A stretch of DNA of 64,000 nt from Escherichia coli (GTDB lineage: Bacteria > Pseudomonadota > Gammaproteobacteria > Enterobacterales > Enterobacteriaceae). This document shows, one piece after another, positions 8,481 to 33,161 of this stretch. How positions within the stretch are numbered: position 1 is the stretch's first letter; each line of letters opens with the position of its first letter. The stretch lies in NCBI RefSeq assembly GCF_003018235.1, contig NZ_CP027437.1, one strand, 5' to 3'. Made by a program: the position numbers and the translations under genes. The notes under the pieces are model-generated. The model was not told the origin of the DNA and did no database searches. It was given only the letters and a program-made list of their open reading frames with translations.

Positions 8481-9700
8481 AAATACTGGTCTACGGCATT
8501 AACTACTCGCCGGAGTTAACGGGCATCGGCAAATACACCGGAGAGATGGTGGAATGGCTTGCGGCACAAGGTCATGAGGTGCGGGTCATTACCGCACCGC
8601 CTTACTACCCGCAATGGCAGGTGGGTGAGAACTATTCCGCCTGGCGCTACAAACGAGAAGATGGGGCCGCCACGGTGTGGCGCTGCCCGCTGTACGTGCC
8701 AAAACAGCTGAGCACCCTGAAACGCTTGTTGCATCTCGGCAGTTTTGCCGTCAGCAGTTTCTTTCCACTGATGGCGCAACGTCGCTGGAAGCCGGATCGC
8801 ATTATTGGCGTAGTGCCAACGCTGTTTTGCACGCCGGGAATGCGCCTGCTGGCGAAGCTCTCTGGTGCGCGTACCGTGCTGCATATTCAGGATTACGAAG
8901 TGGACGCCATGCTGGGGCTGGGCCTTGCCGGAAAAGGCAAAGGCGGCAAAGTGGCACAGCTGGCAACGGCGTTCGAACGTAGCGGACTGCATAACATCGA
9001 TAACGTCTCCACGATTTCGCGTTCGATGATGAATAAAGCCATCGAAAAAGGCGTGGCGGCGGATAACGTCATTTTCTTCCCCAACTGGTCGGAAATTGCC
9101 CGTTTTCAGCATGTTGCAGACGCCGATGTTGATGCCCTTCGTAACCAGCTTGGCCTGCCGGATAACAAAAAAATCATTCTTTACTCCGGCAATATTGGTG
9201 AAAAGCAGGGGCTGGAAAACGTTATTGAAGCTGCCGATCGTCTGCGCGATGAACCGCTGATTTTTGCCATTGTCGGGCAGGGCGGCGGCAAAGCGCGGCT
9301 GGAAAAAATGGCGCAGCAGCGTGGACTGCGCAACATGCAATTTTTCCCGCTGCAATCGTATGACGCTTTACCCGCACTGCTGAAGATGGGCGATTGCCAT
9401 CTGGTGGTGCAAAAACGCGGCGCGGCAGATGCCGTATTGCCGTCGAAACTGACCAATATTCTGGCGGTAGGCGGTAACGCGGTGATTACTGCTGAAGCCC
9501 ACACAGAACTGGGACAGCTTTGCGAAACCTTTCCGGGCATTGCGGTTTGCGTAGAACCGGAATCGGTCGAGGCGCTGGTGGCGGGGATTTGCCAGGCGCT
9601 CCTGCTGCCCAAACACAACACGGTGGCACGTGAATATGCCGAACGCACGCTCGATAAAGAGAACGTGTTACGTCAATTTATAAATGATATTCGGGGATAA
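8477..9700 (+). CDS. wcaI: Colanic acid glycosyltransferase WcaI (GT4)
   Basis: 407 aa GT-B ORF. Confidence 0.9.
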
Positions 9701-9702
9701 TT

Positions 9703-11139
9703 ATGGCGCAGTCGAAACTCTATCCAGTTGTGATGGCAGGTGGCTCCGGTAGCCGCTTATGGCCGCTTTCCCGCGTACTTTACCCCAAGCAGTTTTTATG
9801 CCTGAAAGGCGATCTCACCATGCTGCAAACCACCATCTGCCGCTTGAACGGCGTGGAGTGCGAAAGCCCGGTGGTGATTTGCAATGAGCAGCACCGCTTT
9901 ATTGTCGCGGAACAGCTGCGTCAACTGAACAAACTCACCGAGAACATTATTCTCGAACCGGCAGGGCGTAACACTGCACCGGCCATTGCGCTGGCGGCGC
10001 TGGCGGCAAAACGTCATAGCCCGGAGAGCGACCCGTTAATGCTGGTGCTGGCGGCGGATCATGTGATTGCCGATGAAGACGCATTCCGCGCCGCCGTGCG
10101 TAACGCCATGCCGTATGCCGAAGCAGGCAAGCTGGTGACCTTCGGCATTGTGCCGGATCTACCTGAAACCGGATATGGCTATATTCGTCGCGGTGAAGTG
10201 TCTGCGGGTGAGCAGGATACGGTGGCCTTTGAAGTGGCGCAGTTTGTCGAAAAACCGAATCTGGAAACCGCTCAGGCCTATGTGGCAAGCGGCGAATATT
10301 ACTGGAACAGCGGTATGTTCCTGTTCCGCGCCGGACGCTATCTCGAAGAACTGAAAAAATATCGCCCGGATATTCTCGATGCCTGTGAAAAAGCGATGAG
10401 CGCCGTCGATCCGGATCTCGATTTTATTCGCGTGGATGAAGAAGCGTTTCTCGCCTGCCCGGAAGAGTCGGTGGATTACGCGGTCATGGAACGTACGGCA
10501 GATGCCGTTGTGGTGCCGATGGATGCGGGCTGGAGCGATGTCGGTTCCTGGTCTTCATTATGGGAGATCAGCGCCCACACCGCCGAGGGCAACGTTTGCC
10601 ACGGCGATGTGATTAATCACAAAACTGAAAACAGCTACGTGTATGCCGAATCTGGCCTTGTCACCACCGTCGGGGTGAAAGATTTGGTGGTAGTGCAGAC
10701 CAAAGATGCGGTGCTGATTGCTGACCGTAACGCGGTGCAGGATGTGAAAAAAGTGGTCGAGCAGATCAAAGCCGATGGTCGCCATGAGCATCGGGTGCAT
10801 CGCGAAGTGTATCGTCCGTGGGGCAAATATGACTCTATCGACGCGGGCGACCGCTACCAGGTGAAACGCATCACCGTGAAACCGGGCGAAGGCTTGTCGG
10901 TACAGATGCATCATCACCGCGCGGAACACTGGGTGGTTGTCGCGGGAACGGCAAAAGTCACTATCGACGGTGATATCAAACTGCTTGGTGAAAACGAGTC
11001 GATTTATATTCCGCTGGGGGCGACGCACTGCCTGGAAAATCCGGGGAAAATTCCGCTCGATTTAATTGAAGTGCGCTCCGGCTCTTATCTCGAAGAGGAT
11101 GATGTGGTGCGCTTCGCGGATCGCTACGGACGGGTGTAG
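9703..11139 (+). CDS. cpsB: Mannose-1-phosphate guanylyltransferase
   Basis: 478 aa; N-terminal nucleotidyltransferase motif [15 protein letters not shown] and C-terminal cupin-like region. Confidence 0.95.
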
Positions 11140-19813: not shown

Positions 19814-19986
19814 ATTTGCGACCATTCCTGGAAAAATGGAGCCATACTTAGGAACAATGCTACTGCAATCCACAACGAAGCGGCGTAACATCACAAGTAA
19901 TTCAGTAATCAATTCAGGTAATTGATGCTGGCGAAAAAAATCGAACAAGCTATAATTCAGCAACCATTTTACAGGTGGATGAAATA

Positions 19987-20880
19987 ATGACGAATTTAAA
20001 AGCAGTTATTCCTGTAGCGGGTCTTGGGATGCATATGTTGCCTGCCACTAAGGCGATTCCCAAAGAGATGCTACCGATCGTCGACAAACCAATGATTCAG
20101 TACATTGTTGACGAGATTGTGGCTGCAGGGATCAAAGAAATCCTCCTGGTAACTCACGCGTCCAAGAATGCGGTCGAAAACCACTTCGACACCTCTTATG
20201 AATTAGAATCTCTCCTTGAGCAGCGCGTGAAGCGTCAACTGCTTGCGGAAGTGCAGTCCATCTGTCCACCGGGCGTGACCATTATGAACGTGCGTCAGGG
20301 CGAACCTTTAGGTTTGGGCCACTCCATTTTATGTGCACGACCTGCTATTGGTGACAACCCGTTTGTCGTGGTGCTGCCGGACGTTATTATCGATGACGCC
20401 AGTGCCGATCCGCTGCGTTACAACCTGGCTGCAATGATTGCGCGCTTTAACGAAACGGGCCGCAGCCAGGTCCTGGCAAAACGTATGCCGGGCGATCTCT
20501 CTGAATACTCCGTCATCCAGACTAAAGAACCGCTGGATCGTGAAGGCAAAGTCAGCCGCATTGTTGAATTTATCGAAAAACCGGATCAGCCGCAGACCCT
20601 GGACTCAGACATCATGGCCGTTGGTCGCTATGTCCTTTCTGCCGATATTTGGCCGGAGCTGGAACGTACTCAACCCGGTGCATGGGGACGTATACAACTG
20701 ACTGATGCCATTGCAGAACTGGCGAAAAAACAGTCCGTTGATGCAATGCTGATGACCGGCGACAGCTATGACTGCGGTAAAAAAATGGGCTATATGCAGG
20801 CGTTTGTGAAGTATGGGCTACGTAACCTGAAGGAAGGGGCGAAGTTCCGCAAAGGTATTGAGAAGTTGCTCGGGAAATAA
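19987..20880 (+). CDS. galF: UTP-glucose-1-phosphate uridylyltransferase paralogue GalF
   Basis: 297 aa from [14 protein letters not shown]; conserved landmark upstream of O-antigen loci. Confidence 0.95.
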
Positions 20881-21154
20881 TCAAGACAACAGTTTATTTG
20901 AATTGGCAATACTTCATATTAAATGGCAGGAGAAGTCTCGTGGTGCTATCGGTAGGCAGCATGACTCTACTGCCTTTTTTGTGATAAAAATCAAGCAGTA
21001 AAAAACCAATATTCTACCTTTTCTTGTAGCAAAAATCGATTTTTCCTTGTTTCTTGGTGAGATTAATACGACAATATCTGGAATGTTCTGGGGCTAAATG
21101 TGTCAAAATGTAATCGATAATTGGTAGATTGAGCCCCGCAAAAATTGGAGTGTA

Positions 21155-21193
21155 TAGTATGCTGGTAGCTGTTGAGCCAGGGGCGGTAGCGTG
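21155..21193 (+). promoter_or_regulatory. JUMPstart element with ops site (GGCGGTAGCGTG) upstream of the O-antigen operon
   Basis: gctggtagctgttgagccaggggcggtagcgtg read directly; matches the known JUMPstart/ops consensus used by RfaH. Confidence 0.85.
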
Positions 21194-21322
21194 CCTGAAT
21201 AAATTAACATTTCGGTGTTAAAATAAGGTAACGTTATGTTAAAGGCTAACTTACAACAAATATAAGACCAAATAATTGAATACGTAATTAGCATAAAAGA
21301 TTAATACAATTTCGGAGACGTC

Positions 21323-22339
21323 ATGACTATACTTGTAACAGGCGGCGCTGGTTATATTGGTTCACATACCGTTCTACAATTAATTGAGGGCGGGTATGAT
21401 GTTGTTGTGCTTGATAACCTGAGTAATTCATCCCAAGAGTCACTACATCGCGTTGGGTCTTTGGTTTCGAAAAATATTCCATTCATTAAGGCTGATATCA
21501 ACGATAAACAAAAGCTTGAAGAAGTTTTTAAAAACTACGATATTGATGCAGTGATTCATTTTGCAGGTTTAAAATCTGTTGGTGAATCAGTAAAGAAACC
21601 ACTGGAATATTACATTAATAATGTCAGTGGAACCCTTACCCTGCTTGAAGTTATGAAGCAAGCAAATGTTTACAAATTCATTTTTAGTTCGTCTGCGACT
21701 GTTTATGGTAATCATTCTCCGGTTCCCAATCTGGAGGAATATCCTATTGGAAATGCTTCATGCCCCTATGGAACTACTAAAGTCATGCTGGAGCAGGTTT
21801 TATCAGACTATGCGAAGTCAGATGATAAATTAAAAATTATTGCTCTGCGTTATTTTAATCCTACAGGTGCGCATCCTAGTGGTCTTATTGGGGAGGACCC
21901 GAACGGCATTCCAAACAATCTTGTTCCTTATATTTCTCAGGTTGCTATTGGCAAATTAGAAAAACTGTCCGTTTATGGTGGCGATTATGAAACTATTGAT
22001 GGAACAGGAGTACGCGACTTTATCCATGTGGTAGATCTTGCCGCAGGCCATGTTAGTGCTTTAAGGTATATTGATAAATTACAAGGATATGACATTTTTA
22101 ATCTTGGTACTGGCACTGGTGTATCAGTTTTACAAGTAATCGATGCCTTTGAAAAAGCAAGTAATCAGAAAGTTAATTATGAAATTGTCGCCAGACGTGA
22201 GGGCGATATAGGATCTTCTTGGGCTGATGTATCTAAAGCAGAAAGGATTTTAGGCTGGAAATCCAAGTACAATATTGAAGATATGATGGTCCATACCTGG
22301 AATTGGCAAAAACAAAACCCTAATGGCTATGGAAGTTAG
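21323..22339 (+). CDS. gne: UDP-hexose / UDP-N-acetylhexosamine 4-epimerase (GalE/Gne family)
   Basis: 338 aa; Rossmann GGAGYIGSH and SDR catalytic region; first gene after galF. Confidence 0.8.
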   Translation: MTILVTGGAGYIGSHTVLQLIEGGYDVVVLDNLSNSSQESLHRVGSLVSKNIPFIKADINDKQKLEEVFKNYDIDAVIHFAGLKSVGESVKKPLEYYINNVSGTLTLLEVMKQANVYKFIFSSSATVYGNHSPVPNLEEYPIGNASCPYGTTKVMLEQVLSDYAKSDDKLKIIALRYFNPTGAHPSGLIGEDPNGIPNNLVPYISQVAIGKLEKLSVYGGDYETIDGTGVRDFIHVVDLAAGHVSALRYIDKLQGYDIFNLGTGTGVSVLQVIDAFEKASNQKVNYEIVARREGDIGSSWADVSKAERILGWKSKYNIEDMMVHTWNWQKQNPNGYGS

Positions 22340-22372
22340 TACCTATTGATTTAATATTATAATGGCGTATCA

Positions 22373-24589
22373 ATGAATTTATTTTTCATAGTCGATAAGT
22401 TGGATTGGGCATTCGGTAGAATAGCTCAAAATATAGCAACAGAATTAAGTAGCTTTAATGTAAAAATAGTTTGCACCGATGATTTTAAAACTGTGGCAGA
22501 CTTTGCTATGCACATGGATAAAAACGTAAAAGAAAAGAGTATATTACACTTCTTTTGGCGTGATTATCTTATGGAAGTGATGAACTTCACTCAGCGGAAT
22601 CCCCAATATAAAGAAATTTTGATCAGAAATATTATCACAACGCATATTCCTGATCATCTTTTTACTTATGATGATATCGCAAACTATGAGAGAAGAATTC
22701 CTCTTATGAATTTTGTGGATGGGTATTTTGTTACATCCGGAAAATTGAAAGAGCTATATTCTGAACTGTCTGATTTTCCGCCTCCTCATAGCGTTATCTA
22801 TGATAATCCAGAAATTCCTATGAGCGAGGTAAAAAGCTATGATAATCATGATAGAAAAAAAATCGTATGGATTGGCAATAGTAAATGGGGAGAATACCTC
22901 GGTTACCAAGATTATAAAGGCCTGAATACAATAGTTTTGCCGGCTCTAGATAAATTAAAAAAATCTGGATATACATTTGATTATATTGAGTTTGATAGTT
23001 CTAAAGGCAAGACCGATCGTGAGGTAATTCTTAAAACACTTTCTGATGCAGATATTCTACTGATCAGTTCGAAATGTGAAGGTACACCATTGCCACTTCT
23101 TGAAGCAATGGCAAACAGTTGTGCTGTTGTGTCGACAGATGTTGGTATAGCAAATGAAGTATTACCTGAAAAGCAGTTACAGTATATTGTGTCTCGGGAT
23201 GCAGAGGCATTTTATTATTCGTTGAAAGGTCTTCTTGACGATCAACGCGGTCTTGAAGAGTTACAAAGAATGAATTATATAGCGTATCGTCAGCAATTTG
23301 TAGATGATAGCCTTATAGGTGACAAATGGGCATTGTTCTTCAAAGATATGTGTTCAAAATCGCAAAATGAATTTAAGAATATATTCCTTCGCGAGCAGAA
23401 AATTCCATCATTTAAAGAACGATTGATATCAAAAGCTATTTATAATCTAAGCAGACTAGCTCTTCGTTTGAATTTGATGAATACGCTAAAACAATATAGC
23501 CTGCTACGAAAAATATATTATAAGGTTGCAGGAACAACTACAAATCAAGTTGATTATGATTTGTTGGATGAATTTTATAGTAATGCAATATCAGATAAAG
23601 AAGTATTAGCATTTTACTCTGCATATTGGTCTGGTGTTGCCACATCAACAGCTAGTTTCTTTAAAGATGATAGTATCCAATATCCATATTATTCATATGA
23701 GTTCCCACAGGTTTCTAATCATGTCTATCTAAACAGATTAGCAGAAAAACTTGCTGAATCTAAAACACTAAAAAGTGTGATCATGAGCGGTGGAACACAA
23801 TTACAAATGGAACTTGCCAAAAAAATTAAGGCATTAAGTCCGAAAATAAAAATATTTTTTGCATGGCATGGTTCACCTGCTCAGTGGGTTGACTCCTCGC
23901 AATATTCAACGTTTGATGGATGGTATGAACTTTACCGAGAGCGAATTGCTGATGGGGTCATCTCGTTTAAGCCTGAGCTAGATGAAATACTCAATGCTTA
24001 CGGTATTCGTGCATTCTCAGTATCGAATTATGCTGTATCAGGCTCCTCGTTTTCTAAAAAATTAGCTGCACCTGATTCTGCCAATTTCCGCGTAGGTTTG
24101 TTCGCTGCAATGTTCAGTTGGTATAAAAATCCATTTCCTCAATTACTAGCAATTGGTTCATTAAAAGGATGTGAGCTAGTTACAAACTTGCATCTTGAAC
24201 ATAATATGAAGTGGGTTACTTCAAATATCAAGCTTACGACATTATCAGAAAATTTAAATAATAAGCGGTTTATCGAACTGCTATCTCGTTTACATGTTAT
24301 ATGCTATGTAACGAATACGGAATGTTCGCCAATGATAGCGTTGGAATCTGCAAGTGTCGGAACTCCATGCATTGTGGGGCCAGCTGGAAACATATATAAA
24401 GGTTTTCCTGAGTTAGAATTGTATTTGGTTGAAAAAGAGGTTGATAATCCAACTGCAATCAGGAATCGGTTACAATTAGTTCGTGATAATTACGAGGAAA
24501 TTACAGTTTTGCTTAATGCATTTGTTTTGGAATACAATTCCCGGCTAGAATTAATTAAAGAAAAGATGTATAAAGAGTTGAAGCAATGA
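22373..24589 (+). CDS. Two-domain glycosyltransferase (two GT-B modules), candidate O-antigen chain-extending enzyme
   Basis: 738 aa; N-terminal module with GNSKW ... EGTPLPLLEAMA motif, C-terminal module with ECSPMIALESASVGTP; low GC. Confidence 0.65.
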   Translation: MNLFFIVDKLDWAFGRIAQNIATELSSFNVKIVCTDDFKTVADFAMHMDKNVKEKSILHFFWRDYLMEVMNFTQRNPQYKEILIRNIITTHIPDHLFTYDDIANYERRIPLMNFVDGYFVTSGKLKELYSELSDFPPPHSVIYDNPEIPMSEVKSYDNHDRKKIVWIGNSKWGEYLGYQDYKGLNTIVLPALDKLKKSGYTFDYIEFDSSKGKTDREVILKTLSDADILLISSKCEGTPLPLLEAMANSCAVVSTDVGIANEVLPEKQLQYIVSRDAEAFYYSLKGLLDDQRGLEELQRMNYIAYRQQFVDDSLIGDKWALFFKDMCSKSQNEFKNIFLREQKIPSFKERLISKAIYNLSRLALRLNLMNTLKQYSLLRKIYYKVAGTTTNQVDYDLLDEFYSNAISDKEVLAFYSAYWSGVATSTASFFKDDSIQYPYYSYEFPQVSNHVYLNRLAEKLAESKTLKSVIMSGGTQLQMELAKKIKALSPKIKIFFAWHGSPAQWVDSSQYSTFDGWYELYRERIADGVISFKPELDEILNAYGIRAFSVSNYAVSGSSFSKKLAAPDSANFRVGLFAAMFSWYKNPFPQLLAIGSLKGCELVTNLHLEHNMKWVTSNIKLTTLSENLNNKRFIELLSRLHVICYVTNTECSPMIALESASVGTPCIVGPAGNIYKGFPELELYLVEKEVDNPTAIRNRLQLVRDNYEEITVLLNAFVLEYNSRLELIKEKMYKELKQ

Positions 24590-25365
24590 AAGAATCACTA
24601 ACAGATATATATTTGTCAATAAAATCGTGGCATCTTTGGACCACATTAGGTTGGTTAGAGTTAAGACAGAGATATAAAAGATCCATTGTTGGACCATTTT
24701 GGATTACACTAAGTATGGCGGTCCTTATTATTGCCTTAGGGGTGATTTATGGAGAACTATTTAAACTAGAAGTTAAAGAATATCTTCCGATGCTTGCAAT
24801 TGGTTTGGTTTTCTGGAGCTTTATTAGTGGCGTTATAAATGAAGGATGTGTTACTTTCATATCGTCCAGCTCCTTTATAAGTCAATTGCCAACTAAAAAA
24901 TTCATATATATTATGCAAATGCTATGGCGAAATTTTATGATGCTTTGCCATAATATAATAATAGTGATTGGTGTGTTGATTATATTCAACGTTTTTTCGT
25001 TGAGGAATTTCCCTCTTTTTATACTTGGCTTTATGATCGTAGCTGTTAACTTGATCTGGATTGCAACTTTGTTCGCGATGATTTCTGTACGTTTTAGAGA
25101 TTTTCCGCAAATGGTCATGAGCTTTATGCAGGTTGTCTTTTACATAACTCCAATATTATTTTCTGGAACAATGCTGGCTAAATATAGTTTACTGCTGAAG
25201 TTAAATCCATTTGCTTGGTTTATTGAGATTATTCGATCGCCTTTAGTGGGCAAAATGCCAGAGCTATACTGCTATTATAATTCCATTATCTTTGCATGCG
25301 TAGGAACAATTATCTCTCTAATTACATTTGCAAAATGTAGAAACCGCATTGCATATTGGGTGTAA
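24586..25365 (+). CDS. wzm: O-antigen ABC transporter permease
   Basis: 259 aa, six predicted TM helices, ABC-2 type; start overlaps upstream stop. Confidence 0.85.
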   Translation: MKESLTDIYLSIKSWHLWTTLGWLELRQRYKRSIVGPFWITLSMAVLIIALGVIYGELFKLEVKEYLPMLAIGLVFWSFISGVINEGCVTFISSSSFISQLPTKKFIYIMQMLWRNFMMLCHNIIIVIGVLIIFNVFSLRNFPLFILGFMIVAVNLIWIATLFAMISVRFRDFPQMVMSFMQVVFYITPILFSGTMLAKYSLLLKLNPFAWFIEIIRSPLVGKMPELYCYYNSIIFACVGTIISLITFAKCRNRIAYWV

Positions 25366-25371
25366 ATTATT

Positions 25372-26124
25372 ATGTCTCATTTGATTGACTTGAAAGATGT
25401 GGGTGTTGAATTTCCCATTTACGACGCTAAAAGTAGATCGTTTAAATCGCAGGTGGCAAATTTAACCCGTGGTGTAATTTCTTCAAAAAAAGAAAGCAGC
25501 ACAGTTACGGTTAAATCATTGGACGGTTTGACGTTTAGTCTGAAAGAAGGTGATAAACTCGGACTTATTGGAAATAATGGTGCGGGAAAATCTACGCTAC
25601 TGAAACTCTTGGCTGGTATTTATGAACCAACATCCGGCACAATTAAACGAAAGGGTAAGATAGTTCCTCTGTTGGACATCGCTCTAGGGATGGATGATGA
25701 TTCCACAGGATACCAAAATATAAAGCTACGTGGTTTATTACTAGGTATGACGAATGCAGAAATCGAGTCCAAAATAGAAGAGATCGCTTGTTTTACTGAA
25801 CTAGGTGATTATCTGAATCTACCAATTCGTGTCTACTCTACCGGCATGCGCGTGAGATTAGCATTCGCAGTATCAACTTCAGTTGATCCAGATGTACTTC
25901 TACTCGACGAAATTATTGGTACTGGCGATGCTTCCTTCTTAAATAAAGCAAAGAAAAGATTCGAGGAATTGCAGGAGAGGGCAAAGGTAGTTGTGTTGTC
26001 TTCGCATGACAATAATGTCATTCTGAAAACTTGTAATAAAGTCCTGTGGTTAGAGGGCGGTAAACCAAAGATGATTGGAGATCCGGAAGAAGTACTAAAT
26101 AAATATATGGATAGTGTGATTTAA
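25372..26124 (+). CDS. wzt: O-antigen ABC transporter ATP-binding protein (short form, no C-terminal carbohydrate-binding module)
   Basis: 250 aa; Walker A GNNGAGKST, signature YSTGMRVRLAFA, Walker B VLLLDE; protein ends shortly after the NBD. Confidence 0.85.
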   Translation: MSHLIDLKDVGVEFPIYDAKSRSFKSQVANLTRGVISSKKESSTVTVKSLDGLTFSLKEGDKLGLIGNNGAGKSTLLKLLAGIYEPTSGTIKRKGKIVPLLDIALGMDDDSTGYQNIKLRGLLLGMTNAEIESKIEEIACFTELGDYLNLPIRVYSTGMRVRLAFAVSTSVDPDVLLLDEIIGTGDASFLNKAKKRFEELQERAKVVVLSSHDNNVILKTCNKVLWLEGGKPKMIGDPEEVLNKYMDSVI

Positions 26125-26140
26125 AAAACAGGTGGTATGA

Positions 26141-27220
26141 GTGAAAATTGATTATGTCATTACAGGCATGAATGTCGGAGGCGCGGAAATGCAGGTAGTA
26201 GAACTGCTTCTCGAGCTTAAACGGTGTGGGCATTCTGTTCGGTTAATTTCGCTTACACCACCAGTTGATTTGATCGATAGGCTAATTAGAAATAACATCC
26301 CTGTTGTTTCATTGGGGATGAAGTCCAAATTAGGTTTACCATTTGCTGCATTTAAATTAGCCAGGTTGATGAGACAGAATTCTCCAGATATTGTGCATTC
26401 GCATATGTTTCATGCCAATATCCTAGTACGTCTTGTAAGAATATTTTTGGTGGATAGTACATCTATTATTTGTACTGCGCACAGCATTCGTGAAGGTGGC
26501 AGTGCTAGAGACTGGCTTTATCGTTTGACTAATAAATTAAGTGACTTGAATACAGTCGTAAGCGATGCGGCACGGCTGCGGTTTATTAACGACAAAGTAT
26601 TTCCATCAGAGAAAACACTTACTGTTTATAATTGTATCAATATTGATCATTTTCGTATCATTGATAGACAAAGCAGGAAACGATTTCGCTGGGTAACCGT
26701 TGGGCGGCTTGTAAAAGTAAAAAATCAACTTTTGATTTTGCAAGCGATGATGAAGTTGCCACTTAGTGAACTCATCATAATTGGAGAAGGCGAGGAACGA
26801 CTCTCATTACAAACATTTATCGATCAAAATTCTCTAAGCGAGCGAGTTACTCTCTTGGGTAAAAAAGATAATGTTGTTGATTATTATCATGATTCTGATG
26901 CTTTTGTGCTGGCCTCAGACTATGAAGGATTTGCACTTGTCGTGGCCGAAGCTATGGCATGCGGATTGCCAGTTGTCGCAACAAACTGTGGTGGGCCTGC
27001 TGAAATTATTGGAAATGGACAGGATTTTGGCATAACAATTTCGGTTAATGATGTACATCACTTAACCGCTGCGATGCAACAAATTGAATCATTAGATGTT
27101 GAACAGCGTAGAGGAAGTGGCTATCGTGCTCGGAAAAGAGTCATTGAGAAATTTTCTACTAAAAAAATCGTATCTCAATGGGAAGATATCTACCTGCGCA
27201 TACAGAAAAACAGAATTTAG
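26141..27220 (+). CDS. Glycosyltransferase, GT4 family
   Basis: 359 aa; GTG start with aggtgg RBS; GT-B motif region DYEGFALVVAEAMACGLPVVAT. Confidence 0.75.
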   Translation: MKIDYVITGMNVGGAEMQVVELLLELKRCGHSVRLISLTPPVDLIDRLIRNNIPVVSLGMKSKLGLPFAAFKLARLMRQNSPDIVHSHMFHANILVRLVRIFLVDSTSIICTAHSIREGGSARDWLYRLTNKLSDLNTVVSDAARLRFINDKVFPSEKTLTVYNCINIDHFRIIDRQSRKRFRWVTVGRLVKVKNQLLILQAMMKLPLSELIIIGEGEERLSLQTFIDQNSLSERVTLLGKKDNVVDYYHDSDAFVLASDYEGFALVVAEAMACGLPVVATNCGGPAEIIGNGQDFGITISVNDVHHLTAAMQQIESLDVEQRRGSGYRARKRVIEKFSTKKIVSQWEDIYLRIQKNRI

Positions 27221-27229
27221 AATTCACCT

Positions 27230-28384
27230 ATGAAAATAGCATTAATCGGTACTACAGCAGAAAGTCTAATCCAATTCAGAAAAGAACTGATTAATTTATT
27301 ACATAAAAATGGCCATGTTGTGTATGCGTTTGCAATTGATTATGATGATGTAACAAAAGAAAAAGTTAAATCATTTGGTGCTATACCAGTACATTACTGT
27401 TTCAGTCGAACAGGGCTAAATCCATTTTCTGATATTATCAATACCTATAAATTATATAAGATTCTAAAATCACTTAAGTTGGACTTGGTATTTTCATATT
27501 TTTCAAAGCCAGCCATTTTTGGTACTTTAGCAGCAAAATTTGCAAGAATACAGAAGCGTTATGCGATGCTTGAAGGGCTTGGTTTTTTCTTTACCAATTC
27601 TGGAGGGCAGGTTTCATTAAGGAATAAATTACTAAAGAAAATATTAGTATCACTTTACAAATTAAGTTTCAGACATATTGAAAGTCTTATCTTGCTTAAT
27701 GCGGATGATAAGCGAGACCTTTTAGTTAATGCAAAAATTCAAGTCAAAAAGGTTCATATATTAGGGGGGATTGGATTAAATATGTCTGATTACCCCTACT
27801 GCCCACCGCCTGTTGATCCAGTGTCTTTCATTTTTGTCGCTAGATTTTTACAAGAAAAGGGAGTTTATGAATTTATTGAGGCTGCACAAGTAGTCAAAAA
27901 GAAATTTCCTGAAACTCATTTTTGCATGCTGGGTCATCTGGATCTCCATAATCCGGGGAGCTTAACTACAGAGCGGCTTAATGATTTGAAGTGTAATAAC
28001 ATCATTGAGTTACCTGGCCACGTTGATAACGTGCAGGAGTGGCTTGCTAAAGCGAGTGTATTTGTATTGCCTTCCTGGCGTGAAGGGTTTCCGAGGAGTA
28101 CACAGGAGGCGATGGCAATGGGACGTGCTGTCATAACCAGCGATGTGCCAGGCTGCCGAGATACAGTAGTTGATGGTGTTAATGGATTTTTGATTAAGCC
28201 ACGTTCTTCTCATGCGTTAGCGGAAAAAATGCTCTGTTTTTTACATCAACCTGAGCTAATTACCCAAATGGGGAATGCAAGTCACCAAATAGCTTTACAA
28301 CAATTTGACTCATATATAGTTAATTCAAAACTTATGAAAATACTGCGCGTAGATGATGAAAATACAAAGTCTAATGACTGTTAA
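27230..28384 (+). CDS. Glycosyltransferase, GT4 family
   Basis: 384 aa; GT-B motif region SWREGFPRSTQEAMAMGRAVITSD. Confidence 0.75.
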   Translation: MKIALIGTTAESLIQFRKELINLLHKNGHVVYAFAIDYDDVTKEKVKSFGAIPVHYCFSRTGLNPFSDIINTYKLYKILKSLKLDLVFSYFSKPAIFGTLAAKFARIQKRYAMLEGLGFFFTNSGGQVSLRNKLLKKILVSLYKLSFRHIESLILLNADDKRDLLVNAKIQVKKVHILGGIGLNMSDYPYCPPPVDPVSFIFVARFLQEKGVYEFIEAAQVVKKKFPETHFCMLGHLDLHNPGSLTTERLNDLKCNNIIELPGHVDNVQEWLAKASVFVLPSWREGFPRSTQEAMAMGRAVITSDVPGCRDTVVDGVNGFLIKPRSSHALAEKMLCFLHQPELITQMGNASHQIALQQFDSYIVNSKLMKILRVDDENTKSNDC

Positions 28385-28432
28385 ATCATACAAATAAAAC
28401 GTTATAATAAATACAATTTGGTGGGGAATATT

Positions 28433-29581
28433 ATGGAAAGATTAAATTTGAGTGAAAAACCTGCTCACTCTTTACAAGAAGCGGCTATTCATTGTGCCAG
28501 ATATGCTAATATCTTACATCTTGTTAAAGATAAAGTAGTTCTCGACATTGCCTGCGGCGAAGGATATGGCTCAGCACTATTAATGAAAGCTGGTGCTAAA
28601 CGAGTTGTGGGGGTGGACATCTCTCAAGAGTCAATTGAGCACGCAAAGAAACTTTTTGGGGGATATAATGTTGAGTTTATTGTAAGTGATGCATGTACCA
28701 TCTCAGAGCGTTATGGTGAAGATTTTTTTGATATGGTTGTTTCAATAGAGACAATAGAACACATCAATACTCCTGAAGTTTTTCTTAGTGCTATCAAAAA
28801 AACTGCTAAAGAAAATGCGATTTTCTATATAACTTGCCCTAATGATTATTGGTATTATCCAAATGATGAACAATCCAATCCGTACCATGTACGAAAATAT
28901 ACTTTTCAAGAGTTCACCGAACTTAGTACAGTGATTTTGGGAAAGAATGTTCAATGGGCATATGGTTGTTCTGCTTTTGGATTTTGTACAGTCTCAGCAA
29001 ATAATCGAGGTTTTGAAAAAATAGGTTCTTCATGGATGGAAATAAGCGATTCGGAAAATTCAATTACTGTTTTAAATACAGATATTGACGCAGTTAGTGA
29101 AAATAATTGCAGTTTTTTTGTGGGCTTATGGAATGCACCTGAAACAAATTTTAGCAATAGTACATTCCCAATAAGTATGAATGCTTATTCGCGCATGACA
29201 GAAGAGTTCGAGTCGAATGTAAGTCTGGTACTTCGTGAGGAACAGGCAGAAAATAAAAAAGCTATATCAATATTAAAACAAGATATGAAAAAGTTAACAA
29301 TGGACCTGAGAAAATCAAACCTTTTATTATTCGCATTAAAAATCGAAAATGATGCATTGCGTACTAATATTTCCGAATTGCAACAACAGCTTGCCAGGAA
29401 AATTGCGATGTATGATGAAGTAACAAATACAAATAATAATTTAGTAACTACAAATTCATCATTGATGGAAAGAGTGTCACAGATGGAAATTCCATATTAT
29501 CGATACGTAAGGCTATCCGCCCTTCTTCCGGATTTTTTGAAAAAAATGATACTTAAAATTATGCGTTTGATCAGGAAATAA
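28433..29581 (+). CDS. SAM-dependent methyltransferase with C-terminal coiled coil and amphipathic helix (WbdD-like chain terminator candidate)
   Basis: Class I MTase motif VLDIACGEGYGS; heptad-like region around residues 270-350; basic amphipathic C-terminus LPDFLKKMILKIMRLIRK; ATG 28433 with ggtgggg RBS. Confidence 0.7.
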   Translation: MERLNLSEKPAHSLQEAAIHCARYANILHLVKDKVVLDIACGEGYGSALLMKAGAKRVVGVDISQESIEHAKKLFGGYNVEFIVSDACTISERYGEDFFDMVVSIETIEHINTPEVFLSAIKKTAKENAIFYITCPNDYWYYPNDEQSNPYHVRKYTFQEFTELSTVILGKNVQWAYGCSAFGFCTVSANNRGFEKIGSSWMEISDSENSITVLNTDIDAVSENNCSFFVGLWNAPETNFSNSTFPISMNAYSRMTEEFESNVSLVLREEQAENKKAISILKQDMKKLTMDLRKSNLLLFALKIENDALRTNISELQQQLARKIAMYDEVTNTNNNLVTTNSSLMERVSQMEIPYYRYVRLSALLPDFLKKMILKIMRLIRK

Positions 29582-29583
29582 AA

Positions 29584-31665
29584 ATGTCGGCACGTTTAAA
29601 ATTATTACCAGGGGTAAAATCAACTGAATATGTGTATTCAGACCTTCATGCTTTGCTCGATTCTAATGCTGAAAGCTCGTTTGGTCCGAACATTGGTAGT
29701 GATGGTTCTAACCTAACAATAACATGTTTATCGATGAGTAGAGTTTTTCTTACTGAAAAACTTGTTAATTCTATATATCAGCATATACCTAATTTCAAAG
29801 GTGATATCCTGATTGTTGATAACGGCAGTACATTAGAAGAACTTTCAGTTTTACAAACTTTAAGTGATAGGATTCCATTACATATTAGGGTTATCGAACT
29901 TGGTAATAATTTTGGCGTAAGTGGCGGAAGAAATAAAGCGTTAGAGCATATAAAAACAGAATGGGCTATGTTTCTTGATAATGATATTTATTTTATAAAC
30001 AACCCGTTCCCGAGATTGCAAAAGGATATTTCAAAACTTGGCTGTCATTTCATCAATATGCCATTGCTTGATTCTGATGGAGAAACATTATTCGCAAATG
30101 GAGGGAATATTTTCCTCCATATTGATAATGATTCGGTGCATGTTGGTGCAGGAAGTGCATGCGTCCAGGAAAAAATAACTACATATGATGGTGAGGGCTT
30201 CCTTTCTACATTTCTCTTTGGCGGTGCGAGTGTTATTAAAATTGACTCTCTGAAAAGTTTAGGGAAGTACGATGAAAATATGTTCATTGGATTTGAGGAT
30301 ATTGATTTATCGCTTCGTCTTTACCAGTCAGGAATGAAAGTAGGTACATGTGGTGCAATATCTTTAATCCATGATCACCCCAAACCTAGTTCTAATAAAG
30401 ATAAGGATTATGAGAAAATTCGCTTCACGAAAAGTATATTAAAAGAGTCTGCGGATTATCTTGAAAATAAATGGGGAATGGTTTTCTGGTCAGCTCCAGT
30501 TGATGATTGGTTGGAAGAGAAGCAACGTAGTTTTGAACTGATAACTCAAAAAGAAAGTAACTATTCGCAAATTGATGATAATAAACAAAATGTCATTTGT
30601 GATTTTCCAGTAGCAAAACCGAGAATTGCATTGATTATTGATACTGAAAACTGGGCATTCTCAAATATAGCAAATCAAATAGTCAATCATCTGTCAGATT
30701 CGTATGATTTTACAATAATACCAACTGAAATCATTGATAATATCAGTCAGGTTATTATGATGACCAAAAATCATGATATAACTCATTTCTTCTGGCGTGA
30801 ATCGCTTAGACTTATATATGATGAATGCTATATAAACTATAACCGGGCTATTGGATTTGATGAGCTTAGTTTTAAAAAACAATACTTAGATGGAAGGATA
30901 ATAACAAGTAGTGTTTATGATCATCTATTTCTTGATGAACAAGCTATAAAGTTAAGAAAAACATTTTATAATGATTTAATAACTGCTTATACAGTTAGTT
31001 CATCAAAATTATATGATATATACTCATCAATAGCCGAGTATCCTAATCCGTCAGTTCTTGCTGAAGATGGTGTCGATTTAAAACTATTTTATCCTCTCGA
31101 TCTTGAACGCTTTGACAATATTGAGTCGAGAACATTGCGCGTAGGTTGGGCTGGTAATTCTAAATGGGCGGGAGAAGTAGAGGATTTTAAAGGTTACCAT
31201 TCTTTATTAAAGCCAGCAGTTGAGCAATTACAATCAGAAGGATTGAATATAGAGTTAGTCCTTGCTGATCGTCAGCTCGGATTTATTCCTCATGATGAAA
31301 TGGTAAATTATTATAGCCAAATTGATGTCTATGTCTGTCCTTCAAAAATTGAGGGCACACCAAACCCTGTACTCGAATCTATGGCATGTGGCGTTCCCGT
31401 GATAAGTACTGATGTCGGTGTGGTTAATGATGCGTTTGGTGATATGCAAAAAGAATGGATTTTGCCAGTTAGAAGCAAGGATGTTTTGATAGATAAACTT
31501 CGGGATTTTTATAATAGGCGTAACACAGTGGTAAAATGTTTATCTTCAGAAAATCTGCAGCAAATAAAAAAATGGGATTGGAAAGTTAAATCTGAGAACT
31601 TCCGCATTTTTTTCGACAAATTATTAGAATCTAAAAAGCACAGCAAGATAAACACTGAAATGTGA
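29584..31665 (+). CDS. Two-domain glycosyltransferase (N-terminal GT2, C-terminal GT-B module)
   Basis: 693 aa; GT2 signature DILIVDNGST ... FLDNDIYF; C-terminal module with GNSKW ... EGTPNPVLESMACGVPVISTD, paralogous to the N-terminal module of the 738 aa protein. Confidence 0.7.
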   Translation: MSARLKLLPGVKSTEYVYSDLHALLDSNAESSFGPNIGSDGSNLTITCLSMSRVFLTEKLVNSIYQHIPNFKGDILIVDNGSTLEELSVLQTLSDRIPLHIRVIELGNNFGVSGGRNKALEHIKTEWAMFLDNDIYFINNPFPRLQKDISKLGCHFINMPLLDSDGETLFANGGNIFLHIDNDSVHVGAGSACVQEKITTYDGEGFLSTFLFGGASVIKIDSLKSLGKYDENMFIGFEDIDLSLRLYQSGMKVGTCGAISLIHDHPKPSSNKDKDYEKIRFTKSILKESADYLENKWGMVFWSAPVDDWLEEKQRSFELITQKESNYSQIDDNKQNVICDFPVAKPRIALIIDTENWAFSNIANQIVNHLSDSYDFTIIPTEIIDNISQVIMMTKNHDITHFFWRESLRLIYDECYINYNRAIGFDELSFKKQYLDGRIITSSVYDHLFLDEQAIKLRKTFYNDLITAYTVSSSKLYDIYSSIAEYPNPSVLAEDGVDLKLFYPLDLERFDNIESRTLRVGWAGNSKWAGEVEDFKGYHSLLKPAVEQLQSEGLNIELVLADRQLGFIPHDEMVNYYSQIDVYVCPSKIEGTPNPVLESMACGVPVISTDVGVVNDAFGDMQKEWILPVRSKDVLIDKLRDFYNRRNTVVKCLSSENLQQIKKWDWKVKSENFRIFFDKLLESKKHSKINTEM

Positions 31666-31754
31666 TCAAAATATCATTTTAACCTTAACACAGGTTTTTT
31701 ATCATTATCGTGAGTTAATAAGATCGTAGTATCTACACCTGACAGGAGTATGTA

Positions 31755-33161
31755 ATGTCTAAGCAACAGATCGGCGTCATCGGTATGGCAGTAATGGGGC
31801 GCAACTTGGCGCTCAATATTGAAAGCCGTGGTTATACCGTTTCCGTATTCAACCGCTCCCGTGAAAAGACCGAAGAAGTCATTGCTGAGAATCCGGATAA
31901 GAAACTGGTTCCTTATTATACGGTAAAGGAGTTTGTTGAATCACTTGAAACTCCTCGTCGTATCCTGTTAATGGTGAAGGCGGGCGCGGGTACAGATGCT
32001 GTCATTGATTCACTTAAGCCGTATCTGGAAAAAGGTGACATCATCATTGATGGCGGTAATACTTTCTTCCAAGATACTATTCGCCGTAACCGGGAACTAT
32101 CTGCCGAAGGTTTTAATTTCATCGGCACCGGTGTGTCCGGTGGTGAAGAAGGGGCGTTGAAAGGCCCATCTATTATGCCTGGAGGTCAGAAAGAAGCGTA
32201 CGAGTTAGTTGCTCCAATATTGACTAAAATCGCGGCCATTGCTGAAGATGGCGAACCGTGCGTAACTTATATCGGCGCTGATGGTGCAGGCCATTACGTG
32301 AAAATGGTCCACAACGGCATTGAGTACGGCGATATGCAGTTGATTGCTGAAGCCTATTCTCTGCTAAAAGGTGGTCTTAACCTGTCAAACGAAGAGCTGG
32401 CAGACACTTTTACCAAGTGGAATGAAGGTGAGCTCAGCAGTTACCTGATCGACATTACCAAAGACATTTTCACCCAAAAAGATGAAGAGGGTAAATTCCT
32501 GATCGATGTGATCTTGGATGAAGCGGCTAACAAAGGCACTGGTAAATGGACCAGTCAGAGTTCTCTGGACTTGGGCGAACCGCTATCTCTGATTACCGAA
32601 TCTGTATTCGCTCGGTATATCTCCTCCCTGAAAGACCAACGCGTAGCAGCTTCTAAGGTCTTGACCGGACCTAAAGCTCAGCTTGCAGGTGACAAAGTAG
32701 AGTTTATTGAGAAAGTACGTCGTGCATTATATCTGGGGAAAATTGTGTCTTATGCACAAGGATTCTCACAATTGCGTGCTGCATCTGATGAATATAAGTG
32801 GGATCTGCAATACGGTGAGATCGCGAAGATTTTCCGTGCTGGCTGTATCATTCGTGCACAGTTCTTGCAGAAAATCACTGATGCTTATGCTAACAATGAT
32901 AAAATCGAGAACCTGCTCCTGGATCCCTACTTCAAGAATATTGCTGATGAATACCAGCAAGCTCTGCGTGATGTGGTAACCTATGCGGTACAAAATGGTA
33001 TTCCTGTACCGACGTTTGGCGCAGCTGTCGCTTATTATGACAGCTACCGTGCAGCGGTACTACCGGCGAACCTAATACAGGCGCAGCGCGATTATTTTGG
33101 TGCACATACCTATAAGCGTACTGATAAAGAAGGCGTATTCCATACGGAATGGTTGAATTGA
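31755..33161 (+). CDS. gnd: 6-phosphogluconate dehydrogenase (decarboxylating)
   Basis: 468 aa; [12 protein letters not shown]ossmann motif; higher GC than flanks. Confidence 0.97.

Follow-up and report, generated by a model that had tools for sequence, protein, structure and literature searches.

What polysaccharide is built by the genes lying between galF and gnd in this Escherichia coli strain, and which of the glycosyltransferase (GT) modules encoded there forms which linkage? We addressed these questions on a stretch of 64,000 nucleotides (the window) of contig NZ_CP027437.1, RefSeq assembly GCF_003018235.1. The ORF map of positions 21323-31665 contains eight ORFs, all on the plus strand and placed as in the initial annotation, in the order gne-GT-wzm-wzt-GT-GT-MT-GT (Table 1), which is identical to that of the RefSeq annotation of NCTC10973. 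The cluster is flanked by galF (19975-20880) upstream and gnd (31755-33161) downstream, and has a GC content of 0.32-0.40 versus ~0.53 for the flanking wca genes. Each of the eight ORFs was assigned to a function and neither Wzx nor Wzy was found among them; together with the profile matches of wzm and wzt, this bears out the ABC-transporter route without wzx and wzy that the initial annotation had proposed. No Wzz was found in the locus, and IS elements stand where wzzB would lie, between ugd and hisIE. A match to the ops pattern was located at positions 21182-21189, where the sequence, read directly, is GTATGCTGGTAGCTGTTGAGCCAGGGGCGGTAGCGTG. The ops site is an established marker of long operons that depend on RfaH, and the JUMPstart/ops element upstream of gne marks such an operon. 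A scan for promoter and terminator consensus sequences across the locus gave no excess over shuffled sequence (45 versus 48 expected; 10 versus 7.3), and we thus claim no internal promoter or terminator signals.

Table 1. Features of the O-antigen locus and of the adjoining gnd-ugd region, in coordinates of the window.
Feature	Position	Strand	Basis or remark
JUMPstart element with ops site (GGCGGTAGCGTG)	21158..21193	+	upstream of first gene
gne/galE, UDP-hexose/UDP-HexNAc 4-epimerase	21323..22339	+	NCBIfam GalE, E 4e-136, above curated cutoff
werR, 738-aa GT	22373-24589	+	two GT-B modules
WerR N-terminal GT-B module, aa 1-330	22373..23362	+	Pfam Glycos_transf_1 at 212-306, E 1.4e-10
WerR helical linker, aa ~331-406	23363..23590	+	low-confidence helices, pLDDT 48-65 (AlphaFold model)
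WerR C-terminal GT-B module, aa ~407-738	23591..24589	+	structure model, hhalign, weak Pfam match
wzm, ABC-2 permease	24586..25365	+	NCBIfam galactan Wzm, E 1.6e-71
wzt, ATP-binding subunit, 250 aa	25372..26124	+	NCBIfam galactan Wzt, E 1.6e-89
Single-domain GT4, 359 aa (GT359)	26141..27220	+	full-length GT4 profile matches
Single-domain GT4, 384 aa (GT384)	27230..28384	+	GT4 profile matches
Class I SAM methyltransferase	28433..29581	+	profile matches; RefSeq start
werT, 693-aa GT	29584-31665	+	GT2 + GT-B modules
WerT N-terminal GT2 (GT-A, inverting) module	29584..30583	+	Pfam Glycos_transf_2 (PF00535) at 61-157, E 5.7e-13
WerT C-terminal GT-B module, aa ~345-693	30616..31665	+	Pfam Glycos_transf_1 at 565-648, E 8e-17
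Seven-ORF module between gnd and ugd, O101/O162-specific	33302..39668	+	NCBIfam matches, translations
ArnC/PgfS-like GT2 of this module	34439-35449	+	nonsense TAA at 34520-34522, relative to NCTC10973

Over its full length (11 kb), the locus matched five complete genomes at 99.9% identity, and PGAP names their wzm and wzt 'O89/O101/O162 family'; the RefSeq name of wzm is 'O89/O101/O162 family ... permease'. Within 21323-31665, 11 single-base differences separate it from NCTC10973. Its wzm and wzt, the genes used for typing, were 92.7% and 93.6% identical, respectively, to those of the O89m strain 26561, and the published values for the O101/O162 genes against this strain are 92.6% and 93.4% (PMC6128206). 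No literature was found by strain name for NCTC10973 and the SCPM-O-B strains, which gave the 99.9% matches; we identify the locus as the classical E. coli O101/O162 O-antigen cluster by the names given in annotation, by its gene content and by comparison with published identity values. This cluster reportedly constitutes Iguchi group Gp15, with AB812046 and AB812067 as references, and the gene names werR...werT are said to come from Liu et al. 2019. The O101/O162 polysaccharide consists of PS1, ->6)-a-GlcNAc-(1->4)-a-GalNAc-(1->, extended by PS2, ->4)-b-GalNAc-(1->4)-a-GalNAc-(1->, and then by an O-methyl cap, and both its structure and a block-copolymer model have been published (PMC7685785, PMC13168486). 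With a full-length match to a named serogroup cluster and a published polymer, locus and polymer are already known and the window holds no new system, contrary to the earlier suggestion that the polysaccharide might be uncharacterised. The GalNAc that had been expected in the backbone is found in the published polymer, consistent with gne, a gene named galE in RefSeq and whose role is the supply of UDP-GalNAc (PMC13168486 Fig. 9; PMC7685785).

The reading that we favour, with a probability of about 70%, is that in this O101/O162 operon WerR polymerises PS1 and WerT adds PS2, in a model that we partly infer at the level of domains. A HexNAc block copolymer would be made in the cytoplasm on Und-PP-GlcNAc, with priming by WecA (encoded elsewhere), and exported via Wzm/Wzt. 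The two single-domain GT4 enzymes would add adaptor or junction residues, WerR would polymerise PS1 with its two retaining GT-B modules, and some chains would then be extended with PS2 by WerT, whose GT2 module would form the only beta linkage and whose GT-B module would form the alpha-1,4 linkage. The non-reducing end would be capped with an O-methyl group by the coiled-coil methyltransferase. The N-terminal module of WerR (WerR-N) and the C-terminal module of WerT (WerT-C) would perform an analogous step, alpha-HexNAc-(1->4) onto GalNAc, which would leave alpha-1,6 GalNAc transfer to the C-terminal module of WerR (WerR-C). This putative assignment of modules to linkages draws on family stereochemistry, on analogy and on published mutant phenotypes; the polymer structure, the order of PS1 then PS2, the need of the methyltransferase for the methyl cap and the disappearance of PS2 with an altered WerT are taken from the literature (PMC7685785, PMC13168486), and the present analysis shows the identity of the locus, the families of the domains, and the paralogy with its depth.

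The two largest proteins had been described as multidomain enzymes, and Pfam and AlphaFold agree with this, giving GT-B + GT-B for WerR and GT2 + GT-B for WerT. WerR-N is a retaining, GT4-like module with an EX7E motif (E236-x7-E244) and a pLDDT mostly >90 in the AlphaFold model, and it is followed by a linker (residues ~331-406) in which no Pfam match was found. WerR-C contains an EX7E motif (E650-x7-E658) and an HGSPAQW motif and gave a weak Pfam match only (residues 625-676, E 0.023), and a Pfam scan of 29 aligned WerR homologues did not distinguish the matching half. Since Pfam was weak, the fold of the C-terminal half was settled by the structure model, Foldseek and hhalign. The AlphaFold model, with a pLDDT of 87.6 for the whole protein, shows two Rossmann-like halves in this region (pLDDT 85-98), the top Foldseek matches of the model were the retaining GT4 enzymes BshA, MshA, WbnH and PglA, and hhalign paired the N- and C-terminal halves of WerR with a probability of 90.7% (E 1.3e-6), the two EX7E motifs being aligned. 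WerR-C has 484 representative homologues, most of which form the C-terminal part of proteins of ~740 aa; the homologue alignment (A2) shows no variation at E650 and E658, EX7E is invariant in both halves of WerR, and the two-module architecture is kept in >20 distant cluster representatives. A sequence search of the PDB with WerR and WerT turned up no near homologue of solved structure and returned generic GT4/GT2 matches only, with E no better than 2.7e-6. On the structure model, WerR is predicted to be composed of two retaining GT-B domains.

The N-terminal module of WerT also matched Pfam Glyco_tranf_2_2 (PF10111; residues 52-249, E 2e-7) and, in the PDB, TarS (E 8e-6), and it contains the motifs VDNGS (78-82) and DND (DXD; 132-134), while the EX7E motif of WerT-C is E590-x7-E598. 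In the CAZy classification, GT2 enzymes are inverting and GT4 enzymes retaining. Because the polymer contains a single beta linkage, that of PS2, and the GT2 module of WerT is the sole inverting module encoded in the locus, this module would be the one that makes the beta linkage. The long PS2-bearing chains are lost when the last GT carries a point change or is inactivated (PMC13168486). The calculated mass of WerT is 79.0 kDa, and an 80-kDa polypeptide is attributed to Cheah & Manning 1993 in the citation given by PMC13168486.

BLASTP of residues 1-330 of WerR against residues 340-693 of WerT gave a significant alignment (128 bits, 30% identity over 285 residues, E 7e-39), while in the other pairs of GT-B modules in the locus the alignment was confined to 44-95 residues near the nucleotide-binding motif and scored only 25-46 bits. 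This alignment and the domain maps confirm that a homologous GT-B module is fused to different partners, as had been proposed from shared motifs. GNSKW (position 168 of WerR and 524 of WerT) and EGTPxxxxE (236 and 590) were found as described, whereas the motif given as D-x-W-A-F is actually D-x3-W-A-F (VDKLDWAF in WerR and IDTENWAF in WerT), with WAF at positions 12 and 357; HFFWR is located at 59 and 401. WAF, HFFWR and DHLF are invariant within the clade and missing from the other GT4 modules. WerT-C was 66% identical to one standalone protein (P0002) and 41-59% identical to other standalone proteins of ~340 aa, and WerR-N was 34-40% identical to a separate set (P0038, P0041, P0058 and P0062). 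The two modules, which are 26-30% identical to each other, fell in separate subclades of the wider family in a neighbour-joining tree of its members. Each copy is closer to relatives elsewhere (40% and 66%) than to its partner, which argues against a duplication in the locus. Of the proposal that one module was duplicated and recombined, homology therefore stands and recent local duplication is rejected on the pairwise identities and the tree. A recent duplication of the module in the locus, followed by shuffling onto new partners to give a novel polymerase pair and an uncharacterised polysaccharide, would explain why the homology of the two modules extends from end to end, why their partners differ (a second GT-B in WerR, a GT2 in WerT) and why partner domains vary, the WerT-type module being a standalone 345-aa gene in the syntenic locus L006. 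Apart from the identities and the subclades, however, this explanation is faced with a known polysaccharide (PMC7685785, PMC13168486) and a full-length match to a named serogroup cluster, and it is already largely refuted, so that we give it hardly any credence. The data show instead that WerR-N and WerT-C are, as judged from their sequences, ancient paralogues plus domain fusion, from one distinctive GT4-like clade.

Comparison of the subdomains of WerR-N and WerT-C showed 30.3% identity in the N-subdomain (acceptor-side) and 28.3% in the C-subdomain (donor-side). Such paralogues might share a donor and not a linkage, in which case WerR-N would form GalNAc-a-(1->6)-GlcNAc, WerT-C would form GalNAc-a-(1->4)-GalNAc and WerR-C would be the alpha-1,4 GlcNAc transferase. 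Donor specificity is often kept among related GT-B enzymes, the likeness of the donor-side subdomain includes the EGTPxPxxE motif, and the locus must supply two different alpha-GalNAc transferase activities. The acceptor-side subdomain is, however, equally conserved and carries the clade-specific WAF, HFFWR and DHLF. The N-subdomain of GT-B enzymes binds the acceptor, and its conservation and clade motifs point to a shared acceptor or geometry, a weak argument which sequence alone cannot settle; we consider the shared donor with different linkages to be rather unlikely. Returning to the analogous step of the favoured model, we tentatively propose, as a possibility with somewhat less than even chances, that these modules form a separate GT4-like clade whose acceptor-side subdomain (WAF/HFFWR/DHLF, unrecognised by Pfam) specifies alpha-(1->4) transfer of HexNAc onto GalNAc, and that the block copolymer results from a hand-off from WerR, a bifunctional polymerase, to a second such polymerase, WerT, in which this module is re-used.

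The activity of the single-domain enzymes bears on the same question. GT359 gave full-length GT4 matches in NCBIfam to stp2 (2e-45), BshA (3e-34) and PglJ (3.5e-29), all below the curated cutoffs, and GT384, whose RefSeq name is 'glycosyltransferase family 4 protein', gave GT4 matches to EpsE (4e-24) and stp2 (6e-20). By analogy with WbdB/WbdC, we infer that both are adaptor or junction transferases. The roles could be the reverse, with the single-domain GT4 enzymes polymerising PS1 and WerR and WerT serving as adaptor, junction or scaffold enzymes, as the full-length matches of GT359 and GT384 include PglJ/PglH-type alpha-1,4-GalNAc transferases, and PglH is itself a short-range polymerase. 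In characterised ABC-transporter systems, however, it is the multidomain GT that polymerises while the single-domain GT4s are adaptors, as in E. coli O9a with WbdA as polymerase and WbdB/WbdC as adaptors, and the architecture of WerR is conserved beside wzm/wzt in distant loci. Moreover, loss of WerT removes PS2 specifically (PMC13168486), and we regard this reversal of roles as improbable. With WerR and WerT as the polymerases, GT359 or GT384 could still take part in polymerisation, given their resemblance, below cutoffs, to PglJ/PglH-type alpha-1,4-GalNAc transferases. A related locus (L003) contains a GT4, a WerR-like gene, wzm, wzt and a GT4 only, with neither methyltransferase nor WerT, which fits a self-sufficient core to which methyltransferase and WerT would be a terminal add-on.

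The NCBIfam galactan Wzt profile spans residues 5-246 of Wzt, and by this extent the protein is a nucleotide-binding domain only, the C-terminal carbohydrate-binding module being absent. The start of wzm overlaps the stop of werR by 4 nt. The methyltransferase starts at ATG 28433 in RefSeq, the longest ORF starting from TTG 28418; its profile matches span residues ~30-140, and its C-terminus, read directly from the sequence, has a heptad-rich coiled-coil-like stretch and a basic amphipathic tail (...LLPDFLKKMILKIMRLIRK). Terminators of the WbdD type combine a cap-adding domain, an extended coiled coil whose length sets the chain length, and a C-terminal membrane-binding helix, and the methyltransferase, which caps the chain with O-methyl, would have a WbdD-like layout. 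Its coiled coil and amphipathic tail, and the dependence of methylation on its gene, have been reported (PMC13168486). The loss of PS2 in methyltransferase-disrupted strains has also been published; as werT starts only 2 nt past the methyltransferase stop codon, this loss could be simple polarity on werT, with no need for a methyltransferase-GT complex.

Extra genes peculiar to O101/O162 are located between gnd and ugd and were proposed to underlie the O162 side branch (PMC7685785). In the window, these encode, in order, an FAD oxidoreductase, an ArnC/PgfS-like GT2, an NAD(P) oxidoreductase, a TIM-barrel sugar isomerase/epimerase, an ArnF-like SMR protein, a second GT2 and a polytopic membrane protein, a candidate system for a 4-deoxy-arabino-hexose side branch that was present in only 5 of 5426 genomes. 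The window and two of the five genomes carrying the module have an intact first post-gnd gene; in the other three, this gene is disrupted by IS4. An intact first gene corresponds to O162 and an IS-carrying one to O101, and the window, with its intact gene, is thus assigned on sequence to the O162-type genotype downstream of gnd, plus the extra nonsense codon, a Q28-stop change, in the ArnC-like second gene. The 452-aa membrane protein encoded downstream of gnd had no Pfam match even at E 10. The polytopic protein (38298-39668) was considered as a hidden Wzy, which is disfavoured by its position in the side-branch module beside the ArnC-like and ArnF-like genes; it is more likely a GT-C-type periplasmic transferase, though unproven.

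Comparison with known systems showed that the window matches the O101/O162 cluster in chromosomal site, gene order, gene lengths and gnd-ugd genes, with nothing of substance differing within 21323-31665, while the nonsense codon lies in its second post-gnd gene. The Onovel32 / O89m / O89b locus, for example that of strain 26561, has the same eight genes in identical order, with proteins 84-99% identical, but is ~91% identical overall to the window locus at the nucleotide level, the methyltransferase (84% aa) and WerT (90% aa) being the most divergent. This variant usually lies, with IS elements on its flanks, between nfsB and ybdK, and has a truncated gnd without the gnd-ugd module (PMC6128206). 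The E. coli O9a polymannan system also combines a multidomain GT polymerase (WbdA, two GT4), single-domain GT4s and ABC export, and WbdD has a C-terminal coiled coil and membrane-binding tail, as the methyltransferase here probably does. However, WbdD has a kinase domain that is absent from this methyltransferase, the O9a Wzt reads the cap with a C-terminal carbohydrate-binding module that the 250-aa Wzt lacks, and O9a relies on a single polymerase for a single repeat unit, where this locus has two polymerases and two blocks. Klebsiella pneumoniae O1 / O2ac, a comparison also drawn in PMC13168486, likewise makes a block copolymer, with a second repeat unit on the non-reducing end of galactan-I, and its galactan-type Wzm/Wzt without a carbohydrate-binding module are the best NCBIfam matches here. 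It differs in having Gal rather than HexNAc, in its glycosyltransferase families and in the genes for the second polymer, wbbYZ, which are unlinked whereas WerT is encoded inside the operon.

Multidrug-resistant bloodstream isolates of E. coli frequently include strains of the O101/O162 group, most of them with the Onovel32 variant, and antigens of this group are under consideration as conjugate-vaccine targets (PMC13168486), so there is practical value in assigning the blocks of the antigen to the modules that build them. The window provides a clean copy of the classical O101/O162 cluster and lends support to an assignment of domains to linkages that can be tested. In this copy, WerR and WerT, the proposed polymerases, have an old, distinctive transferase module in common.

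The results of a megablast search of positions 21000-32000 against 5,426 complete E. coli genomes showed that this locus is already known and is the E. coli O101/O162 cluster. The query was 99.9% identical over 100% of its length in five genomes, in which wzm and wzt are named 'O89/O101/O162 family' by PGAP, and roughly 91% identical in about 300 further genomes, among them strain 26561, which serves as type example for the O89m/Onovel32 variant (PMC6128206). The wzm and wzt genes of the window were 92.7% and 93.6% identical, respectively, to those of strain 26561, while the published values for the O101/O162 alleles are 92.6% and 93.4% (PMC6128206). The O101/O162 gene organisation in the review of Liu et al. 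(PMC7685785) and in Weerdenburg et al. [quoted passage not shown] The initial annotation had proposed an uncharacterised polysaccharide; instead, the full length of the locus matches a well-characterised serogroup cluster whose polymer structure is published (PMC7685785, PMC13168486). What is new here is confined to how deep the paralogy between two glycosyltransferase (GT) modules runs, the wider family to which they belong, and a testable proposal for which domain makes which linkage.

The ORF map and the profile searches agreed with the annotated gene content, wzm and wzt without wzx or wzy, and with an ABC-transporter pathway served by multidomain enzymes. The eight ORFs are tightly packed in the same direction, with a GC content of 0.32-0.40 compared with ~0.53 in the upstream colanic-acid genes, and the werR stop codon overlaps the wzm start codon (ATGA, 24586-24589). 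No Wzx or Wzy was found among the ORFs of the cluster. The usual site of wzzB is between ugd and hisIE. No chain-length regulator was found in this interval of the window, and the presence of IS elements without such a regulator is common to all five O101/O162 genomes.

Features of the O101/O162 region, with gene families assigned by profile searches
Feature	Position	Description
galF	19975-20880	Flanking gene
JUMPstart element	21158-21193	5' of the first gene; ops sequence GGCGGTAGCGTG
O-antigen cluster	21323-31665	Eight ORFs
Epimerase		GalE/Gne
WerR, 738 aa	22373-24589	Group-1 GT domain, clear at residues 212-306; second, weak, at 625-676
Wzm
Wzt, 250 aa	25372-26124	Galactan-exporter ATPase profile spans entire protein
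Two single-domain GT4 enzymes, 359 and 384 aa		Both full-length matches
Methyltransferase		Class I SAM
WerT, 693 aa	29584-31665	GT2 domain at residues ~46-264, then group-1 GT domain at 565-648
gnd	31755-33161	Flanking gene
gnd-ugd module	33302-39668	Seven ORFs, O101/O162-specific: ArnC-like polyprenyl-P glycosyltransferase, ArnF-like SMR protein, second GT2 (Dpm/AglJ-like), polytopic membrane protein, three redox/isomerase enzymes
First gene after gnd	33302-34417	Intact
Second gene after gnd	34439-35449	ArnC/PgfS-like polyprenyl-phosphate glycosyltransferase
ugd-hisIE interval	41245-42900	IS3-family and IS200/IS605 transposase genes

We then compared the N-terminal GT-B module of WerR (WerR-N, residues 1-330) with the GT-B module of WerT (WerT-C, residues 340-693). 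BLASTP gave 30% identity over 285 residues (128 bits, E 7e-39), which upheld the annotated homology between the two large proteins. All other pairs of GT modules in the locus scored only 25-46 bits over 44-95 residues in an all-against-all comparison, confined to the nucleotide-binding motif, so that the similarity exceeds a generic GT4 resemblance. The motifs WAF, HFFWR, DHLF, GNSKW and EGTPxPxxE(A/S)MA are common to both modules; the motif pattern first described is thus present, although its first element is D-x3-WAF rather than D-x-WAF.

The second half of WerR is also predicted to be a glycosyltransferase module. An AlphaFold2 model made from a 29-sequence alignment (mean pLDDT 87.6) contained two complete GT-B domains, at residues 1-330 and ~410-738, connected by a helical linker that was modelled at low confidence, and Foldseek matched it in the PDB to the retaining GT4 enzymes BshA, MshA, WbnH, PglA and SenB and to a capsular multienzyme. 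When the families of the N-half and the C-half were aligned profile to profile (probability 90.7%, E 1.3e-6), EGTPLPLLE (236-244) fell on ECSPMIALE (650-658), and both glutamates of these EX7E motifs were invariant in the family alignment. Together, these results show that WerR consists of two retaining GT-B modules fused in one protein.

The annotation had suggested a single module duplicated and recombined with different partner domains. A profile made from both modules plus the corresponding Onovel32 sequences (E<=1e-10) retrieved 78 proteins, mostly standalone glycosyltransferases of ~340 aa. In a neighbour-joining tree of the aligned relatives, WerT-C clustered with standalone proteins at 41-66% identity (66% for the relative P0002), while WerR-N clustered separately with four others (P0038, named Brucella sp. 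09RB8910 in its source, P0041, P0058 and P0062) at 34-40%. The two modules were only 26% identical to each other across the trimmed alignment, and we rejected a recent local duplication on the basis of this low mutual identity (26-30%), the closer relatives found elsewhere (40% and 66%) and the separate tree groups. All 1.84 billion representatives were scanned with the WerR C-half, giving 484 relatives, the best being the C-terminal part of ~740-aa proteins; 28 of these aligned with both WerR halves at 16-46% identity (20 of the 28 at 28-46%) and kept the motifs of both modules, which shows that the two-module design is old and widespread. By these comparisons, the split between WerR-N and WerT-C long predates the assembly of the locus, and the history of the module is one of ancient paralogy and fusion to different partners.

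The modularity of the system is directly visible in two related loci. The first, L003 (Logan SRR20674067 contig 5343, 1201-7167), is a minimal relative of the O101/O162 system, with a GT4 gene, a WerR-like gene (744 aa, 46% identity to WerR), wzm, wzt and a second GT4 gene, and with neither methyltransferase nor WerT. Its neighbours are acyltransferase genes, a PglF-like dehydratase gene and a gene for a small Bac_transf initiating transferase. The second, L006 (ENA ERZ27261665 contig k119_41589), lies in another enterobacterial genome, is syntenic at galF-gnd and has the same first seven genes as the window (54-89% amino acid identity). At the methyltransferase/WerT position (9499-11038), it carries an 87-aa ORF matching only the C-terminal tail of the methyltransferase, followed by a standalone 345-aa glycosyltransferase of the WerT-C type (66% identity) without the GT2 domain, an arrangement that reflects either the deletion of both N-terminal parts or the state before the fusion.

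In the methyltransferase, an N-terminal catalytic domain is followed by ~90 heptad-rich residues and by a tail that is basic and amphipathic, a layout like that of WbdD (O9a). In O8/O9a, the cap is read by the C-terminal domain of Wzt. The Wzt of the window, in contrast, has no carbohydrate-binding module within its 250 residues, which the exporter profile fills, even though the polymer is published as ending in an O-methyl cap (PMC13168486). Chain length is bimodal, and disruption of the methyltransferase gene abolishes both methylation and the PS2 repeat, as does a single substitution in the last glycosyltransferase in one isolate (Weerdenburg et al., PMC13168486). An 80-kDa rfb polypeptide was inactivated in Cheah & Manning 1993 (as cited in PMC13168486); the computed mass of WerT is 79.0 kDa. 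Since werT begins 2 nt past the methyltransferase stop codon (29579-29586), disrupting the methyltransferase gene is likely to have a polar effect on werT. We infer that this polarity would explain more simply why PS2 is missing from strains whose methyltransferase gene carries an IS element or a frameshift, a point that matters for how methyltransferase-minus strains have been interpreted in the literature.

Two disaccharide repeats are common to O101 and O162, PS1, ->6)-a-D-GlcNAc-(1->4)-a-D-GalNAc-(1->, and PS2, ->4)-b-D-GalNAc-(1->4)-a-D-GalNAc-(1-> (PMC7685785); GalNAc, which the initial annotation suggested for the backbone with Gal as the alternative, is in both. We infer from these structures a mechanism linking modules to linkages. 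Anomeric configuration is inverted by GT2 and retained by GT4-type enzymes. The locus has a single GT2 module, in WerT, and the polymer a single beta linkage, in PS2, so that this module would make b-GalNAc-(1->4) and WerT-C the alternating a-GalNAc-(1->4). WerT would then be the PS2 polymerase, consistent with the published absence of PS2 from strains with an altered WerT; PS1 persists in such mutants (PMC13168486). WerR would supply the two retaining activities that PS1 requires. In O9a, WbdA is the polymerase and WbdB and WbdC are adaptors; by analogy, the two single-domain GT4 enzymes would make the adaptor on Und-PP-GlcNAc and/or the junction between PS1 and PS2. Identity between WerR-N and WerT-C was 30.3% in the N-terminal, acceptor-side Rossmann half and 28.3% in the C-terminal, donor-side half. 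It is possible that the paralogues share the UDP-GalNAc donor and that WerR-N makes the alpha-1,6 linkage. However, since the acceptor-binding half is conserved as strongly as the donor half, we favour a common acceptor step, in which both would add alpha-HexNAc to O4 of GalNAc: alpha-GlcNAc by WerR-N in PS1 and alpha-GalNAc by WerT-C in PS2. With this common acceptor step, WerR-C would perform the remaining a-GalNAc-(1->6) step.

[quoted passage not shown] The gnd-ugd module, for which six genes are given in the review (PMC7685785) and seven ORFs were found here, looks like a periplasmic, lipid-carrier-dependent side-branch system resembling Gtr, Arn and Klebsiella gmlABC in style, which would fit addition of this sugar after export; its polytopic membrane protein had no Pfam match. 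The first gene after gnd is interrupted by IS4 in three of the five matching genomes and intact in the other two, and the O101 reference has an IS insertion in it (PMC7685785); its intact form in the window is the O162 state. In the second gene, a C to T change at 34520 relative to NCTC10973, one of the five genomes, converts codon 28 from CAA (Gln) to TAA, while all five encode the same intact protein (WP_016241347.1). This change is possibly a sequencing error. If it is real, it may inactivate the pathway for the O162 side branch, and the antigen that the strain displays may resemble O101, though arrived at differently from the O101 reference with its IS insertion.
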